Shown: positions 3,367 to 54,514 of the stretch, piece by piece
Position numbering within the stretch: position 1 is the stretch's first letter
How the letters are laid out: each line of letters begins with the position of its first letter
NCBI GenBank assembly: GCA_029856435.1
Contig: JAHQXB010000123.1
Coordinates: 1-60,269, forward strand
Length of the DNA: 60,269 bases
Reading direction: 5' to 3'
Source: Candidatus Jordarchaeia archaeon
Lineage (GTDB): Archaea > Asgardarchaeota > Jordiarchaeia > Jordiarchaeales > Jordiarchaeaceae
The notes under the pieces: generated by a model
The model's input: only the letters and a program-made list of their open reading frames with translations
The model's database searches: none
Told to the model about the DNA's origin: nothing
Translations under genes and position numbers: made by a program

Positions 3367-5700
3367 ATGATTGGCGTCTATATTTGTGAGTGTGGTGGAA
3401 ACATTGGAGATGTGGTTGACGTTAACGCAGTGAAGGAAGCCATCCAAAAAATTCCCGACGTGAAAACCGTACGAATAAACAGGTTTCTATGTTCTAAACT
3501 AGGTCTTAAAATGATAGTGGACTCTGTCAAAAAACAGAACTTGGACCGGGTGGTAGTTGCATCGTGTTCCCCACACATGCATGAGGAGACCTTTAGAGAG
3601 ACAGTGGTTGAAGCGGGACTAAACCCCTACATGTTTGTACACACAAATATTCGAGAGCAGGATTCTTGGGTCACCAAGGATAAAAAGAAGGCTACAGAAA
3701 AGGCCATAGCCATAATATCGGGGGCAGTGGGCAGAGCGAGAAAATTGGAGCCCCTCCAAAAGACCAGAGTAGAAATCTCTAAGGATGTTATGGTCATCGG
3801 CGGCGGAATAGCGGGGATAACAGCGGCGCTACAGCTGGCAAACTCTGGATACCGCGTCATAATGGTGGAAAAAAAGCCGAGCATAGGAGGCAGAATGGCT
3901 CAGCTCAGTAAGGTTTTCCCCACCCTAGACTGTGCACCCTGCATCCTCAGCCCCAGAATGGCAGACGTGGACAAAAACCCCAACATCACACTACTAACCA
4001 ACTCAGAAGTGGAAAAGGTATCAGGCGGACCGGGAAACTATGAGGTGCAAGTTAGGATTAAGCCCCGAGGAGTGGATGTTGAGAAGTGTTTAAGATGTGG
4101 CAAGTGTGAGAAGGTATGTGAGGTGGAGGTCCCAGACGAGTATGAGGCGGGACTCTATAAACGCAAAGCAATATATTTACCATTTGCACAAGCTGTTCCC
4201 GCCGCTTACACCATAGACTTCGAAAACTGTAAAAAATGCGGGGCCTGTCAAAAGGAGTGCCCCGCCGAGGCCATAAACATCAACCAAGAGGAGAGAGAGG
4301 AGATCTTCAATGTGGGGGCAATAATAGTTACTACTGGCTATGACCTCCTAGATAAGGGTGAGATAGAAAGATACAAGATTGACGAGGAATCTACAATAAC
4401 TTCACTCCAGCTGGAGAGACTTATAGAGAATGAGCTTGCAGCGGGAGAAGTTCTTAAAAATTCCAAGGGTAAACGCATAAAAGACGTAGCATTTATTCTC
4501 TGCGTAGGCTCCAGAAATCCACATAAGGGAGTTTCCTACTGCAGCAAAGTCTGTTGTCCCTACGCGGTTAAGGAAGCGATACTGCTGAAGAAGACTCTAC
4601 CCTATCTCCGCATATGGATCTACTACATTGATTTGAGGATGGCTGGCCGAGGATACGAAGAACTCTACAGACAGGCGCGGGAAATGAACATAAACTTCAT
4701 CCATGGCAAGCCCGCAGAAGTGAGCCTAGACCCAGAATCTGGAAGACTCCAAATTGTGTCTGAGGACATTGACACAGGCCAAATAATAAGAAACTCTTTG
4801 GATCTCGTTGTTTTATGCCCAGCTATGATTCCTTCAAGAGACTTGGGAGAACTGGCGGGCAAGCTCAACATTTCCACGGGTGAGGATGGCTTTATCGCAG
4901 AAAAGCACATTAAACTTAATCCAGTTTCCACCCTAAGGGAGGGTATATACGCTGCGGGAACAGCTCTTGGCCCAAAGGATATCAGAGAATCCGTGGTAGA
5001 CGCCAGGTCCACTGCAGCCCAAGCAATAGAATTTTTGGGAGAGGGATACAAGGATATTTCACCGATAAAAGCTAGACTGGTAGGTGAATGTCGGGGCGCG
5101 GGGGAGTGTGTGAAAGTATGCCCCCACAACGCCATAACATTAAGCGAGAAAACTGGTAAAGCGGAGATAAATATACTGGCCTGTAATGGTTGTGGAGCAT
5201 GTGTCCCCGCATGCCCTAACAAAGCTTTACAGTTGGCTCACTATACAAAGGAGCAAATAATGGAGGAAGTAAAGGGTCTTCTATCTGTACCAACAGAGGA
5301 TATTAGAATAATTGGATTCTTTGGAGACTCTACAGCTTATCCCGCTGCAGACGCTGCCGGCGTATCGCGGCTAAACTATCCCCCAAACCTACTGATTGTA
5401 AGAGTGCCATCTACTGCGCTTATAGATACAGAGACGCTGATAAAAACTTTGGAGATGGGCGCAGATGGAATTATGCTTTGTGAAAATGGAGACACTAAGG
5501 AGGGAGAGTTAACCGAGGAGAATGTGAAGAAAACACAGATGGAGCTTGAAAAGAGGGGAATAGAGAAGGAAAGAGTGTTTTACCAGCCCCTAGCAATTCC
5601 GGCATACAAGTCTCTGCCATACTTGGTAGAAACATACCTTTCAAGGATCAAAAAAGTTGGAAAAATAGGCGTCAAAACTGCGCCTCTCTCTAAAGGCTAA
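3367..5700 (+). CDS. hdrA: HdrA-like flavoprotein with a C-terminal degenerate MvhD-like domain
   Basis: N-terminal YICECGGNI, GGGIAG, KVFPTLDCAPC, ferredoxin insert, CVGSR...YCSKVCC, C-terminal ferredoxin. The last ~140 aa align with MvhD (AADAAGVSRLNYPPN...GADG) but lack its Cys motifs. Confidence 0.92.
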   Translation: MIGVYICECGGNIGDVVDVNAVKEAIQKIPDVKTVRINRFLCSKLGLKMIVDSVKKQNLDRVVVASCSPHMHEETFRETVVEAGLNPYMFVHTNIREQDSWVTKDKKKATEKAIAIISGAVGRARKLEPLQKTRVEISKDVMVIGGGIAGITAALQLANSGYRVIMVEKKPSIGGRMAQLSKVFPTLDCAPCILSPRMADVDKNPNITLLTNSEVEKVSGGPGNYEVQVRIKPRGVDVEKCLRCGKCEKVCEVEVPDEYEAGLYKRKAIYLPFAQAVPAAYTIDFENCKKCGACQKECPAEAININQEEREEIFNVGAIIVTTGYDLLDKGEIERYKIDEESTITSLQLERLIENELAAGEVLKNSKGKRIKDVAFILCVGSRNPHKGVSYCSKVCCPYAVKEAILLKKTLPYLRIWIYYIDLRMAGRGYEELYRQAREMNINFIHGKPAEVSLDPESGRLQIVSEDIDTGQIIRNSLDLVVLCPAMIPSRDLGELAGKLNISTGEDGFIAEKHIKLNPVSTLREGIYAAGTALGPKDIRESVVDARSTAAQAIEFLGEGYKDISPIKARLVGECRGAGECVKVCPHNAITLSEKTGKAEINILACNGCGACVPACPNKALQLAHYTKEQIMEEVKGLLSVPTEDIRIIGFFGDSTAYPAADAAGVSRLNYPPNLLIVRVPSTALIDTETLIKTLEMGADGIMLCENGDTKEGELTEENVKKTQMELEKRGIEKERVFYQPLAIPAYKSLPYLVETYLSRIKKVGKIGVKTAPLSKG

Positions 5701-47172: not shown

Positions 47173-47727
47173 GTGAGCTTTAAGGATTCTGGGTGGTCGG
47201 ATTTGGAAATTCTGCAAAATATCTCAGAATGCTTTAAGCTTTTGAAGAAGGGTTTGGAAAATTTGAAAAACAAAGAATTTGAAAACGCTTTATCTGTTTT
47301 GTCGGACGCCTCCACTCTTATGTATATAAGTCTTAGTCGAACTGTTACCCGTAATTTATCCTATAGGCATGCTTATGGTATTATTGTACAATTCAATATT
47401 TTAGTGGTTTCTCTTGCTATAAGTTTTCTTGTGCGTGCCAGTCAAGTTAAAGAGGAAGCAAGGGAGAGTTTGGGGGGAGCCACATCTCTTATAGCTTTAA
47501 TCACGGCGTTTCTGAACCCATTGTTGAGAAGCATTATAGAGCAAGAATCAAAGCCTGGCGGCTACAAGTTAACGGAAAAAGATAGATATCTTTTAGAAGA
47601 GATGATGGAGCTGAATGAAGTTATCCGAGATTTCAAAAAACAGTTTGAGGAGGAGAGAAAAGAGGTTTTGGAAGAAAAGCCAAAAAAGGTAACTGCAAAG
47701 ACTAAAAAAACGCGGGCCAAGAGGTAA
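47173..47727 (+). CDS. Hypothetical helical protein
   Basis: 184-aa ORF after a GGAGG RBS; hydrophobic core helices and basic tail. Confidence 0.7.
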   Translation: MSFKDSGWSDLEILQNISECFKLLKKGLENLKNKEFENALSVLSDASTLMYISLSRTVTRNLSYRHAYGIIVQFNILVVSLAISFLVRASQVKEEARESLGGATSLIALITAFLNPLLRSIIEQESKPGGYKLTEKDRYLLEEMMELNEVIRDFKKQFEEERKEVLEEKPKKVTAKTKKTRAKR

Positions 47728-49974: not shown

Positions 49975-50024
49975 ATTTTAATTGGGAGGGGTGGCTTTAA
50001 ATATCAAATGCAAAAATTATACTA

Positions 50025-50597
50025 GTGCAGAATCAAAATCTTATTTCTCTGGAAAGGATTTTTAGAGAAGTGAAATATTTGAGGTTTTGGCTGGTTTCAC
50101 CAGAGGCTTTGAAACAGAAATGCTTGGAGTTTATCATCCTTGAAGGATATTTTAACCCGGAGACCTTTTCAGAGTTAGAATACTCTCTCCACAACCAAGA
50201 ATATCCAAGCAAAGTCCTCATCTCTGAATTGTGTAGAAATATTAGATGCCCAACCATTTGTGAAAAATGTCAAGCTGATTGCACGCACAAAGAATTTTGT
50301 AAGCAGGTGGCGAGGCTGCACATTGATAGAAGTCCACCATGTATAAGAAAAGCCTACAACTTGGGCGAGTTTCGAATAGTTAAAAACTATTTCAAGTCGC
50401 TAGGACTTCTACCCAATACAACGGAAGAACGCCTTGGAGTGAAATGCACATTTATGAGAAAAGTGGGGCTGTGCGAAACGGACAATTTCTGTAAAGGTAT
50501 GAAGACAGGAATTTTAACTGAATACTATAATATACGCTTAAAAAGAAAAATCACCGAAGAAATAAAGAGTAATAGGCCTCAAACCTTTGGGAAATAG
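50025..50597 (+). CDS. Cys-rich protein resembling the primase large-subunit (PriL) C-terminal Fe-S domain
   Basis: SPPC106...C141-x8-C150-x5-C156...YY pattern plus an upstream six-Cys cluster; judged by motif recognition only. Confidence 0.65.
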   Translation: MQNQNLISLERIFREVKYLRFWLVSPEALKQKCLEFIILEGYFNPETFSELEYSLHNQEYPSKVLISELCRNIRCPTICEKCQADCTHKEFCKQVARLHIDRSPPCIRKAYNLGEFRIVKNYFKSLGLLPNTTEERLGVKCTFMRKVGLCETDNFCKGMKTGILTEYYNIRLKRKITEEIKSNRPQTFGK

Positions 50598-51915: not shown

Positions 51916-52158
51916 ATGCCCAGAAAAAAAAGCGAAACAATCATACCAGTTGCACCAATCGATAGACTGATCAGAAACGCCGGCGCGGAAAGAGTTTCAG
52001 AAAGTGGAGCTGCAGCACTAGCCAAAATCTTAGAAGAACTTGGGACGGAAATAGCGCGACTAGCAGATGAGATGGCGAAGCACACTGGAAGAAAAACCAT
52101 AAAAGAAGAGGACATCGACTTGGCATACAAAACATGGAAAAAAACAAAATTCCCATAA
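51916..52158 (+). CDS. Archaeal histone (HMf family) with short basic extensions
   Basis: IPVAPIDRLIRNAGAERVS...HTGRKTIKEEDIDLA. Confidence 0.96.
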   Translation: MPRKKSETIIPVAPIDRLIRNAGAERVSESGAAALAKILEELGTEIARLADEMAKHTGRKTIKEEDIDLAYKTWKKTKFP

Positions 52159-52291: not shown

Positions 52292-54514
52292 TTATCTTGA
52301 AACTCGCAGCTCATACCGGAGTACATCGCCTAGGTTCTCAATCTCTGAAATATTGTATATGCTGCCTCCACTTTTCTCTGCGATGCTTTGGCAAATCTTC
52401 TTCCGCCAATTCTTCATTAACGCGTGGCTTTCTGGACGGATAACAACAGTGCGAATGTTTTCCTTTTTTATCAATTTAGCTATCTCCTCAATCTCGTATA
52501 GTAACTGGTTGTAGGATTCCATCTCAGACCTCATCTGTTGAATGTAAGAGTAACGTTTTTCAGAAAAATTGCCGGCGTTTAGTGGCACATTTGCGCCCCC
52601 GTCACTAATAGTTACTAGGAAGGGTACTACCTTGTTATCTTTCATTTTCTCCCGTTTCAGTACTTCGAGTCCTTTGACCAGTCCTGCTGCTAGGGGAGTC
52701 CAACTTCCAGATTTTACGGTTAACAGTTTTGCAGTTACCGTTTGCAGGTTTACTGTGGGATATTGCATTACTTCGGCGTTGTAGCCTTTGAATACCACCA
52801 GTCCCACGCGGTCTCTTTGGCGATAGGCTTCATCGTGCAGGGAGAGTATCACCTGTTTGACTTTTTTTAGGTTTTTAAACATTGAGCCGCTGGCATCAAG
52901 TACAAAGACTATGGAGAGTGGGGCGCGGTACTCAAATATTTTTTCGCGAATATCTTGGGTTCGGATATTTACTGCCAGATTTTTGTTTTTTCTGCTTTTT
53001 TGGTAGGGTGAGGATGCTCTTATTGACGCATCCAATGCGATGTGCCTAGTTTTTTCTTTGGGGATTTTGTAGTAGATGTATCTTCCTTTGTCTGAGGAAC
53101 CTTTTGCTTTTAGCCTCCTTCCCAAAAAGCTGGGTTCATCCTTTCTGAAGTAGCTTTTATACTGCTGCCTAAAAAATTCTCCAAGAATGTTTGCCTTCTT
53201 GAGCTCTTCTAGTTCTTCTTCTGTTAAGGCATCAAATCTTGGGTCTCTGATATTTATCATTCCATCTCGGTCTTGGCCTTCTTGTTGCTGTGTGTAGCGG
53301 TTCAAGAGGTCTTGGTAGGGGATGTCCTGATTTGACGGAGCGGCTTGCATGCCTTCCTCAAATGAGATGTTTTGAATATCTTTTCCCGAGGCATCCTCAC
53401 TTTTGGTTTGTTGTTGACCATTCATTTCGGCGTCGTTACGAAAAAAACCCATGGCCTCTTGTTGCTTCACTTCGTTTAGTGTTTTTTCGAATGCTTCTGC
53501 TATCCTTTTGTTTACCGTTTCTGCATCTTCGAATTCAAATTTTCGAATTCTGTGACCTAGGGCTAATTCCGCAGCCTTTAGCACGTCTTGTTCGTTTACT
53601 TCTTTTCTTCCGTCCAAGGCTGCTAATGCTTTGGCGCAGCGCATAACCGTTATATCCCCTCTATGGGTGCCTACTCCCAGCTCCAGGCACAATCTTACAA
53701 TGGTTACCAGAAGGTACGTTGGTATTTTTACTTCTGGAAGAATTTCTTTAGCCTTCACTATCCTTTTCTGAAGATCCTCTTCTTCACTCTGCCACTTCTT
53801 CAGAAACTCTTCCTGGTTTTTATCAAATTCTTGGATGCGGTTTAGTATCTCCAGTCTTTGTTTAACATCCTTGAGAGGGGCCACCTCTACCTGTAGGCCT
53901 ATTCTGTCAAGTATTTGTGGTCTTAGTTCCCCCTCCTCAGGATTCATACTTCCCACTAACACGAAGCTTGAGGGGTGGGATACAGATACGCCTTCTCTTT
54001 CTACAGTGTTAACCCCAAAAGCTGCGGCGTCTAGAAGGTCGTCCACTATATGGTCACTTAGAAGGTTAATCTCGTCTACATATAGTATTTGCCGATTAGC
54101 TTCAGCTAGTATGCCTGGCTCCAGAGCTTTAACTCCTTCCTTTATTGCCCTTTCAATGTCTAGAGATCCCACAACTCTATCCTCTGTTACCCCCAAAGGA
54201 ATTTCAACAACCCTCATCCTCCTGACCTCATATTCTAAGGTATCGTTTTCCTTCAGTTTGGCTTTACACATTTCACACATAGTTGATGGATTTGCGGGAT
54301 CGCAGTTAAATGGGCAATTCTTAACGAATTCTATTTCTGGCAATAATGCAGCTAATGCTCTCACTGCAGTAGATTTCCCTGTGCCTTTCTCTCCACGGAT
54401 CAATACGCCACCGATTTTAGGATCTATAACGTTTAAAATTAGACCAAGCTTCATATTAGTTTGGCCGACTATTGCCGTGAAGGGAAAAACAACTTTTTTA
54501 TATCGAACAGACAT
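52292..54514 (-). CDS. ChlI/ChlD-type chelatase AAA+ ATPase with vWA domain
   Basis: [33 protein letters not shown], acidic/Gln-rich linker, MIDAS DASGS. Confidence 0.92.

Follow-up and report, generated by a model that had tools for sequence, protein, structure and literature searches.

The window analysed here, a stretch of 60,269 nt of DNA from a Candidatus Jordarchaeia archaeon, contains a gene, most likely at positions 50070-50597, that is under selection and whose product carries, in its C-terminal half (residues about 87-182), a paralogue of the C-terminal Fe-S domain of the primase large subunit (PriL-CTD). The protein looks like an undescribed replication accessory factor, and the reading we prefer, to which we assign a probability of roughly 0.45, is that it serves DNA replication or repair as an accessory factor beside the canonical PriS-PriL primase. 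In Jordarchaeia and in one Thorarchaeia-type family the gene belongs to the lineage-specific core. Its features are listed below; residue numbers here and throughout refer to the 190-aa form that begins at GTG 50025.

50025-50597, + strand: longest open reading frame, 190 codons open from GTG 50025 (ORF listing)
50070-50597, + strand: most likely coding sequence, 175 aa, GTG start (MKYLRFW...), judged from the ORF listing, homologue starts, pLDDT and dN/dS
49996-50003, + strand: TTTAAATA, candidate archaeal TATA box about 25 nt 5' of 50025-50030 (direct sequence reading)
50082-50282, + strand: N-terminal helical module, residues about 20-86, HTH or winged-helix-like
50232-50282, + strand: first Cys4 site, C70-x8-C79-x2-C82-x3-C86, invariant in 45/45 members and also in the N-module alignment with the viral fusion and stand-alone forms
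50283-50570, + strand: truncated PriL-CTD-like domain, residues about 87-182, basic, pI about 9.8
50340-50492, + strand: second Cys4 site, C106 (SPPC) and C141-x8-C150-x5-C156, predicted [4Fe-4S] ligands, aligned one-to-one with PriL C237, C310, C319 and C325
50373-50375, + strand: R117, basic residue (K/R/H in 40/45 members) aligned with an invariant PriL Arg (R256 of the own-genome PriL, H..RF motif)

Reading frame, conservation and distribution of the gene

Annotated homologues begin at the counterpart of V16-K17 (MK...FWL), and ORF residues 1-15 were disordered in the AlphaFold2 model (pLDDT <50). Given these two observations and the position of the TTTAAATA box at 49996-50003, the true start is probably GTG 50070; from its letters, the box itself may be a promoter element. 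Comparison with same-genus orthologues gave a dN/dS of 0.07-0.11, implying strong purifying selection on the gene.

Word-indexed and exhaustive searches recovered 10 close relatives and several distant ones, and a profile search found 52 homologues of about 135-235 aa, with Thor-, Hod-, Jord- and Freyarchaeota among the named sources. The database name of all family members was "hypothetical protein", without a functional name. An earlier note on this DNA had listed the cysteines of the frame; its entries were all correct, and C33 alone had been overlooked (Cys at 33, 70, 75, 79, 82, 86, 92, 106, 141, 150 and 156). Counted in a 45-member family alignment, C70, C79, C82, C86 and C106 were invariant (45/45), C141 and C150 were each present in 44/45 members and C156 in 43/45, while C33, C75 and C92 occurred in a minority of members, chiefly Jordarchaeia relatives. 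Eight of the 11 cysteines are accordingly conserved, as two sets of four; the note had named non-conserved Cys as counting against its proposal. Where it had counted six further cysteines ahead of the PriL-like signature, four of these (C70, C79, C82 and C86) proved invariant across the 45 members, and C75 and C92 did not. By its ligand pattern, the C-terminal site is predicted to hold a [4Fe-4S] cluster, and the N-terminal site would hold either Zn or a second cluster.

We assessed phyletic distribution by scanning the family profile against 201 Asgard genomes, each at least 85% complete, and detected the family in 67 of them. Every genome of two families from the window's own order in Jordarchaeia was positive (f1, 5/5; f2, 3/3), as were 55 of the 56 genomes of a large Thorarchaeia-type family (f7) and the one genome of a further family (f8, 1/1). 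Family f7 includes a Thor-type orthologue (G005) whose neighbourhood equals that of the Thorarchaeota-named homologues. Two of three genomes in family f13 carried the N-terminal half only, and the remaining Asgard families in the 201-genome scan had no family member (e.g. 0/51, 0/21, 0/15). Across positive genomes the copy number was nearly always one, the frame was intact in 55 of the 56 f7 genomes and in nearly all Jordarchaeia genomes, and the cysteines stayed invariant at between-class identities of 23-30%. The gene was absent from sampled genomes with a long, eukaryote-like PriL, and its bearing on eukaryogenesis is therefore limited.

One orthologue, in a Jordarchaeia-order genome (G006; L055:~4950-5456, G006:C1:799250-799734), contained three stops (TGA, TAG and TAA), with the C-terminal 110 codons alone staying open. 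This broken copy is a pseudogene unless the assembly is in error.

The C-terminal half and the primase large subunit

The elements of the PriL C-terminal signature that the earlier note had read in the frame (SPPC106, C141-x8-C150-x5-C156 and Y167-Y168) were all found, together with the short C1-C2 spacing that it had pointed out: 34 residues from C106 to C141, compared with 72 from C237 to C310 in the PriL of the same genome. The C2-C3-C4 spacing (x8, x5) was identical in the two proteins. BLASTP of the ORF against the own-genome PriL aligned residues 141-179 with 310-346 (E 2e-4), and the same comparison paired DRSPPCIRK with DSFPPCISK. For comparison between profiles, the C-terminal domains of twelve short-type Asgard PriL served as the reference. 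HHalign of the family profile against this PriL-CTD profile gave 94.6% (E 7e-8) over residues 101-174, from PPC to the PriL end, with all four Cys ligands aligned; a second hhalign, against full-length PriL, gave 88.6% (E 2.6e-6) over the C2-to-end part. The profile score was 51.7. Shuffling the columns of the PriL profile 100 times gave scores no higher than 22.3, and reversing the profile gave 9.7. The BLASTP match, the HHalign result and the shuffle controls together establish that the C-terminal half is homologous to the PriL-CTD Fe-S domain with its four ligands, as the note had proposed. The PriS-binding N-domain of PriL is indeed missing, since the full-length PriL profile aligned over PriL 245-354 only.

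Pfam PF04104 matched neither the ORF nor any of the 45 members at E up to 10, while the same model found the true PriL of the genome at 4.5e-34. Pfam, NCBIfam and PDB sequence searches of the ORF likewise returned nothing usable, and the case for PriL homology is therefore made by profile-profile comparison and motif identity. The weak matches that did appear, among them LA_0364 lipoprotein (E 0.023), zf-HIT (E 0.067) and Ral, look like noise from Cys composition and were set aside. Separately, the family profile weakly matched residues 410-444 of PDB 30ie_B, a "virion nicking-joining enzyme" (E 0.14), with the same K-C-x8-C-x5-C spacing, and three members weakly matched the virion-protein domain PF11475 (VP_N-CPKC, E 0.038). 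These matches may be due to chance or may represent another carrier of the Fe-S_C motif.

A first AlphaFold2 model built from 11 close sequences was poor (pLDDT 61.6) and was replaced by a 45-sequence model (pLDDT 82.2, pTM 0.73; residues 20-130 mostly >90), which was nearly all-helical. In a structural search against 48,161 chains, the sole long matches to residues 87-177 were the human and yeast PriL-CTD, given here with their listed values.

5dqo_A, human p58C: 4.1; 4.7; 86
6di2_A, yeast PriL-CTD: 3.5; not recorded; 84

Neither AlphaFold2 model matched a PDB entry in Foldseek at E <= 0.001, and the models suggest the PriL-CTD likeness less strongly than the sequence comparisons do.

Resemblance to PriL extends over motifs that occur in the same order and spacing in both: SPPCI; K-C-x2-[ML]-x3-GLC-E-x-[DN]-x-[FL]C; and a P/L-x-YY-x2-R basic helix. 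The C-domain has a median pI of 9.8, with R171 and K175 conserved in the last helix. In the terms of Kazlauskas et al. (PMC5862659), the family keeps Fe-S_C, the cluster ligands and two helices of Fe-S_N. Some 38 residues between C1 and C2, part of Fe-S_N, are gone relative to PriL; the lost segments comprise the His of the H..RF motif and PDF...RYQxEHxxG, and the PriL invariants H253, D282, F283, R289, Y290, E293, H294 and G297 have no counterpart in the family. Position 117 lies at the N-terminal turn of the second helix and may correspond to the initiation Arg of PriL, an equivalence that we regard as tentative because the alignment is gapped there. From our reading of the motif, the invariant PriL Arg of H..RF is presumably human R306. 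Human R306 is indispensable for initiating primers and, on superposition, coincides with R72 of PriX (PMC5700102).

The N-terminal module and the genomic setting

What the earlier note had described as a second Cys cluster is a Cys4 site within an autonomous N-terminal module, separate from the PriL-like domain. The module also exists alone, in the f13 proteins of 105-110 aa, with the Cys4 site kept. It exists in fused form as well: a 581-aa protein (P0014) begins with an N-module that has all four Cys, 48% identical to Jordarchaeia proteins (E 4e-11), and continues with D5_N and DUF5906. In a Thor-type genome, the first 60 residues of a 606-aa D5_N/DUF5906/Pox_D5 helicase (L066:4758-6578:+, G058:C27) correspond to the opening half of the N-module (hhalign 93%, E 3e-7), with the Cys4 site absent. 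The N-module is thus shared with D5-type helicases of Asgard mobile elements.

Several observations accompany these forms. The stand-alone N-module genes L056:4997-5314:- and L057:4958-5290:+ (G023, G034) adjoin a Peptidase_A24 gene. P0014 (L050:9805-11550:+) is encoded on ENA contig k141_266466, which is tailed-virus-like in carrying HK97 capsid, portal and dUTPase genes and is probably an Asgard virus sharing a host module. A match of the P0014 N-module in a high-GC phage contig, from the viral-contig scan, was out of frame and was rejected as spurious. A family-profile search for longer fused forms found none; this was a weak search, as it missed the known 581-aa fusion.

Structural searches of the N-module favoured HTH or winged-helix domains, a second PDB structure search repeated the HTH-like matches, and an Atlas shape search with residues 24-85 returned HTH-type rows only. 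The top matches of an ESM-Atlas feature search, GVIN1_C vertebrate clusters (0.91-0.93), were treated as chance, recognition being below the tool's mark. The module has a pI of ~7, and its helix 3, which carries a predicted metal ligand, is acidic in Thor-type members. There were also weak matches to CMD/AhpD-type proteins (PDB 1vke, E 0.65; 1p8c, E 1.5). The N-module profile matched a PF02627 protein in a genome scan (E 1e-5), and hhalign against CMD proteins gave 11-62% (P 7.5e-5 to 2.7e-3), with scores of 23-29 versus a shuffle maximum of 15. The ORF gets no score from the PF02627 model, and the structural-search lists for the N-module contained no CMD structure. Signals of kinship between the N-module and CMD/AhpD proteins are low-level but recurrent.

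The genome has a regular primase elsewhere. A separate full-length priL, which the earlier note had suggested looking for, encodes 350 aa within a PCNA-priL-priS cluster on another contig; this PriL keeps a complete CTD, and each of 41 sampled Asgard genomes had exactly one PriL. The gene described here never adjoined priS or priL in the neighbourhoods examined. In Jordarchaeia it follows a purF-purD-purE-flavoprotein block, with convergent or divergent flanking genes and no operon. In Thor-type genomes it lies in a housekeeping region, 60-110 bp upstream of a co-oriented gene for an HD/HD_assoc_2 protein, and in f8 a co-oriented gene for a DEAD/Helicase_C/MZB (MrfA-like) helicase follows 74 bp downstream of it. 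None of these neighbourhoods in Jordarchaeia, Thor-type genomes or f8 resembles a mobile element. HD_assoc_2 was considered as a phyletic-profile partner and rejected, because its presence in 33/41 genomes makes it non-discriminating. A predicted complex of the ORF with its own PriS, PriL and two 4Fe-4S clusters scored 0.00 in a run without controls, which counts neither for nor against an interaction.

Further genes near these loci were recorded. The f8 helicase (L053:2294-4900:-, G007:C42) is 868 aa long, has an N-terminal Zn-ribbon-like CxxC pair and was seen in one lineage only. Within the window, a 184-aa ORF (47173-47727, + strand) with no Pfam match lies between the purine block and a GH2 glycosidase gene, and has a 180-aa counterpart in the same place in a Freyarchaeum genome (L045:5193-5735). 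Just downstream of the gene are an archaeal histone gene (51916-52158, + strand) and a gene for a 740-aa Mg-chelatase-like AAA+/VWA protein (52292-54514, - strand), an order kept in the same Freyarchaeum genome (L045).

Possible functions and comparison with known systems

Under the reading that we prefer, the gene would encode a small (~175 aa) two-module metalloprotein that works beside PriS-PriL without replacing PriL. Its first module (residues ~20-86) would be compact, helical and HTH-like, with the invariant Cys4 spread over its third helix and the loop that follows, and its second (residues ~87-182) would be a PriL-CTD paralogue with the four [4Fe-4S] ligands, Fe-S_C and the basic C-terminal helix. 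The cluster may staple the basic C-domain into a nucleic-acid-binding unit, and the N-module may dock the protein onto DNA or onto a replisome or repair partner; we infer the metal content, the DNA binding and the replication link alike. In favour of an accessory role are the canonical PCNA-priL-priS cluster elsewhere in the genome, the basic C-domain, the replication kin of the N-module and the link to PriL. Against it are the varied neighbourhoods, the want of linkage to priS or priL, the loss of most Fe-S_N contacts, the G006 copy with its three stop codons, and the acidic helix 3 of Thor-type members, which makes that helix a poor fit to a classical DNA-reading helix.

Rrf2- or SufR-type one-component regulators share a design of HTH plus cluster. 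The protein could likewise be an Fe-S or thiol redox-sensing DNA-binding regulator, with the HTH-like N-module on DNA and the cluster, perhaps together with the N-terminal Cys4 or CxxC site, sensing O2, redox or Fe-S status. We consider this doubtful. A small gene on its own that encodes an HTH-like domain joined to a Cys4 cluster domain, the lack of an operon with replication genes and the weak N-module matches to CMD/AhpD-type CxxC redox proteins are all consistent with it. However, PF02627 does not match the ORF, helix 3, acidic in the Thor-type proteins, bears a predicted metal ligand, the N-module has a pI of about 7, no divergent target gene is kept across lineages, and the recognisable kin of both modules are replication proteins.

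Could the protein instead be a genuine third subunit of the primase, analogous in function to PriX, which binds PriS-PriL and supplies or regulates a site for the initiating NTP or 5'-triphosphate? Descent from PriL-CTD, the precedent of PriX as a stand-alone PriL-CTD relative, and the basic residue (K/R/H, 40/45) aligned with PriL R256, with its tentative match to human R306, argue for such a subunit. We nevertheless think it unlikely: the His of the H..R motif and RYQxEHxxG are deleted, genomic linkage to priS or priL is lacking, and the gene is missing in most Asgard lineages with the same short PriL type. Moreover, the own-genome PriL keeps its complete CTD, so nothing needs replacing. Another improbable proposal is that Jordarchaeia and Thor-type Asgard archaea have a three-part primase/replisome module, to which the protein, as the extra subunit with a cluster-bearing minimal PriL-CTD and a docking module of helicase type, would contribute either a second site for the initiating NTP or 5'-triphosphate, by way of its basic residue at the PriL initiation-Arg position, or a [4Fe-4S] redox switch tying the hand-off of primase, helicase or polymerase to the redox state of the cell.

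If the protein were a Zn-binding structural protein, rich in Cys, that had come to resemble PriL-CTD by convergence, the missing PF04104 match would be accounted for, and Cys-rich sequences do draw spurious matches, such as those to zf-HIT and LA_0364 lipoprotein in this case. This reading is nonetheless very unlikely, as the likeness reaches beyond the cysteines to motifs in the same order and spacing, the profile score lies far above those of column shuffles, and the structural search, independently, had PriL-CTD as its best long match. Decay of a duplicated priL to a fragment, the outcome that the earlier note had named as counting against its proposal, would fit a short protein with no PriL N-domain and an orthologue with stop codons (G006), but is practically excluded for a conserved single-copy gene under selection (dN/dS 0.07-0.11, conserved cysteines, an unbroken frame in 55/56 f7 genomes and in nearly all those of Jordarchaeia, 23-30% identity between classes with invariant Cys) that has acquired its own N-terminal module and coexists with a regular priL.

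Archaeo-eukaryotic primases owe their ability to begin a chain to the PriL-CTD, and what its [4Fe-4S] cluster does is still a matter of dispute. Primer synthesis without a cluster has been demonstrated for PriSLX (PMC5700102). Two 2025 studies of Asgard primases and replisomes (PMC12770985, PMC12680538) describe PriS and PriL alone and treat PriX as crenarchaeal or Sulfolobus-specific; neither survey mentions the present family, which would add an unlisted component to Asgard replication inventories.

Compared with PriL-CTD (PF04104; human p58C 5dqo, yeast 3lgb/6di2), the family shares the ligand order, PPC, GLC-E and the P/L-x-YY basic helix, and lacks ~38 Fe-S_N residues along with the invariant His and RYQxEHxxG. 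PriL has its own N-terminal PriS-binding domain, which is absent from the family, whereas the N-terminal Cys4 module of the family is unrelated to PriL. In the genome studied, priL adjoins priS, and the family gene is on another contig.

Other likenesses concern the N-module. TFE-beta / RPC39 combines a winged helix with a [4Fe-4S] domain that acts as a protein-binding device (Blombach et al. 2015, PMC4495717). Like the family, TFE-beta is a small archaeal protein in which an HTH/winged-helix-type module is followed by Cys4 cluster chemistry, but its Cys spacing (C-x2-C-x5-C-x10-C) differs. Orthology to TFE-beta was excluded: hhalign of the N-module against TFE-beta gave 0.1%, and PF05158 and PF02186 did not match the ORF. 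A canonical TFE-beta of 125 aa is encoded elsewhere in the genome (L060:1309-1686:-, G000:C165), with a winged helix and exactly the C-x2-C-x5-C-x10-C of Saccharolobus TFE-beta; PF05158 scored this protein at E 0.48 only. The D5-type (D5_N + DUF5906) SF3 helicases have the N-module in common with the family, and in them a helicase takes the place of the PriL-like domain. Asgard CMD/AhpD-like (PF02627) proteins have the same C-x8-C-x2-C-x3-[H/C] spacing as the N-module and a similar helix pattern.

PriX (Saccharolobus solfataricus, PDB 4wyh, PriSLX) and the PriCT-1/PriCT-2 domains of mobile-element primases are already examples of PriL-CTD derivatives, stand-alone or shuffled, that coexist with a normal PriL (PMC5700102, PMC5862659). 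No PriX or PriCT match emerged in any sequence or structure search. PriX and PriCT lack a cluster; what they retain is the helical subdomain Fe-S_N with its NTP site (PMC5862659, PMC5700102). The earlier note, which had likened the protein to PriX, was right that PriX lacks the Fe-S cluster, but the relation is reversed, as the family keeps the cluster part that PriX lost. PriX, which is crenarchaeal, has an NTP site of the pattern D-x-R-K-R (D70/R72/R74), whereas the family, found in Jordarchaeia and Thor-type Asgard archaea, has instead the cluster ligands and Fe-S_C with a truncated Fe-S_N. The family thereby represents a natural dissection of PriL-CTD and the mirror image of PriX, in that the cluster ligands and small subdomain are kept and most of the NTP/template subdomain is dropped. 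Because the cluster part is kept, most of Fe-S_N is dropped and the gene is nearly universal and single-copy in two Asgard lineages, the family could show what the cluster part of PriL-CTD does alone.
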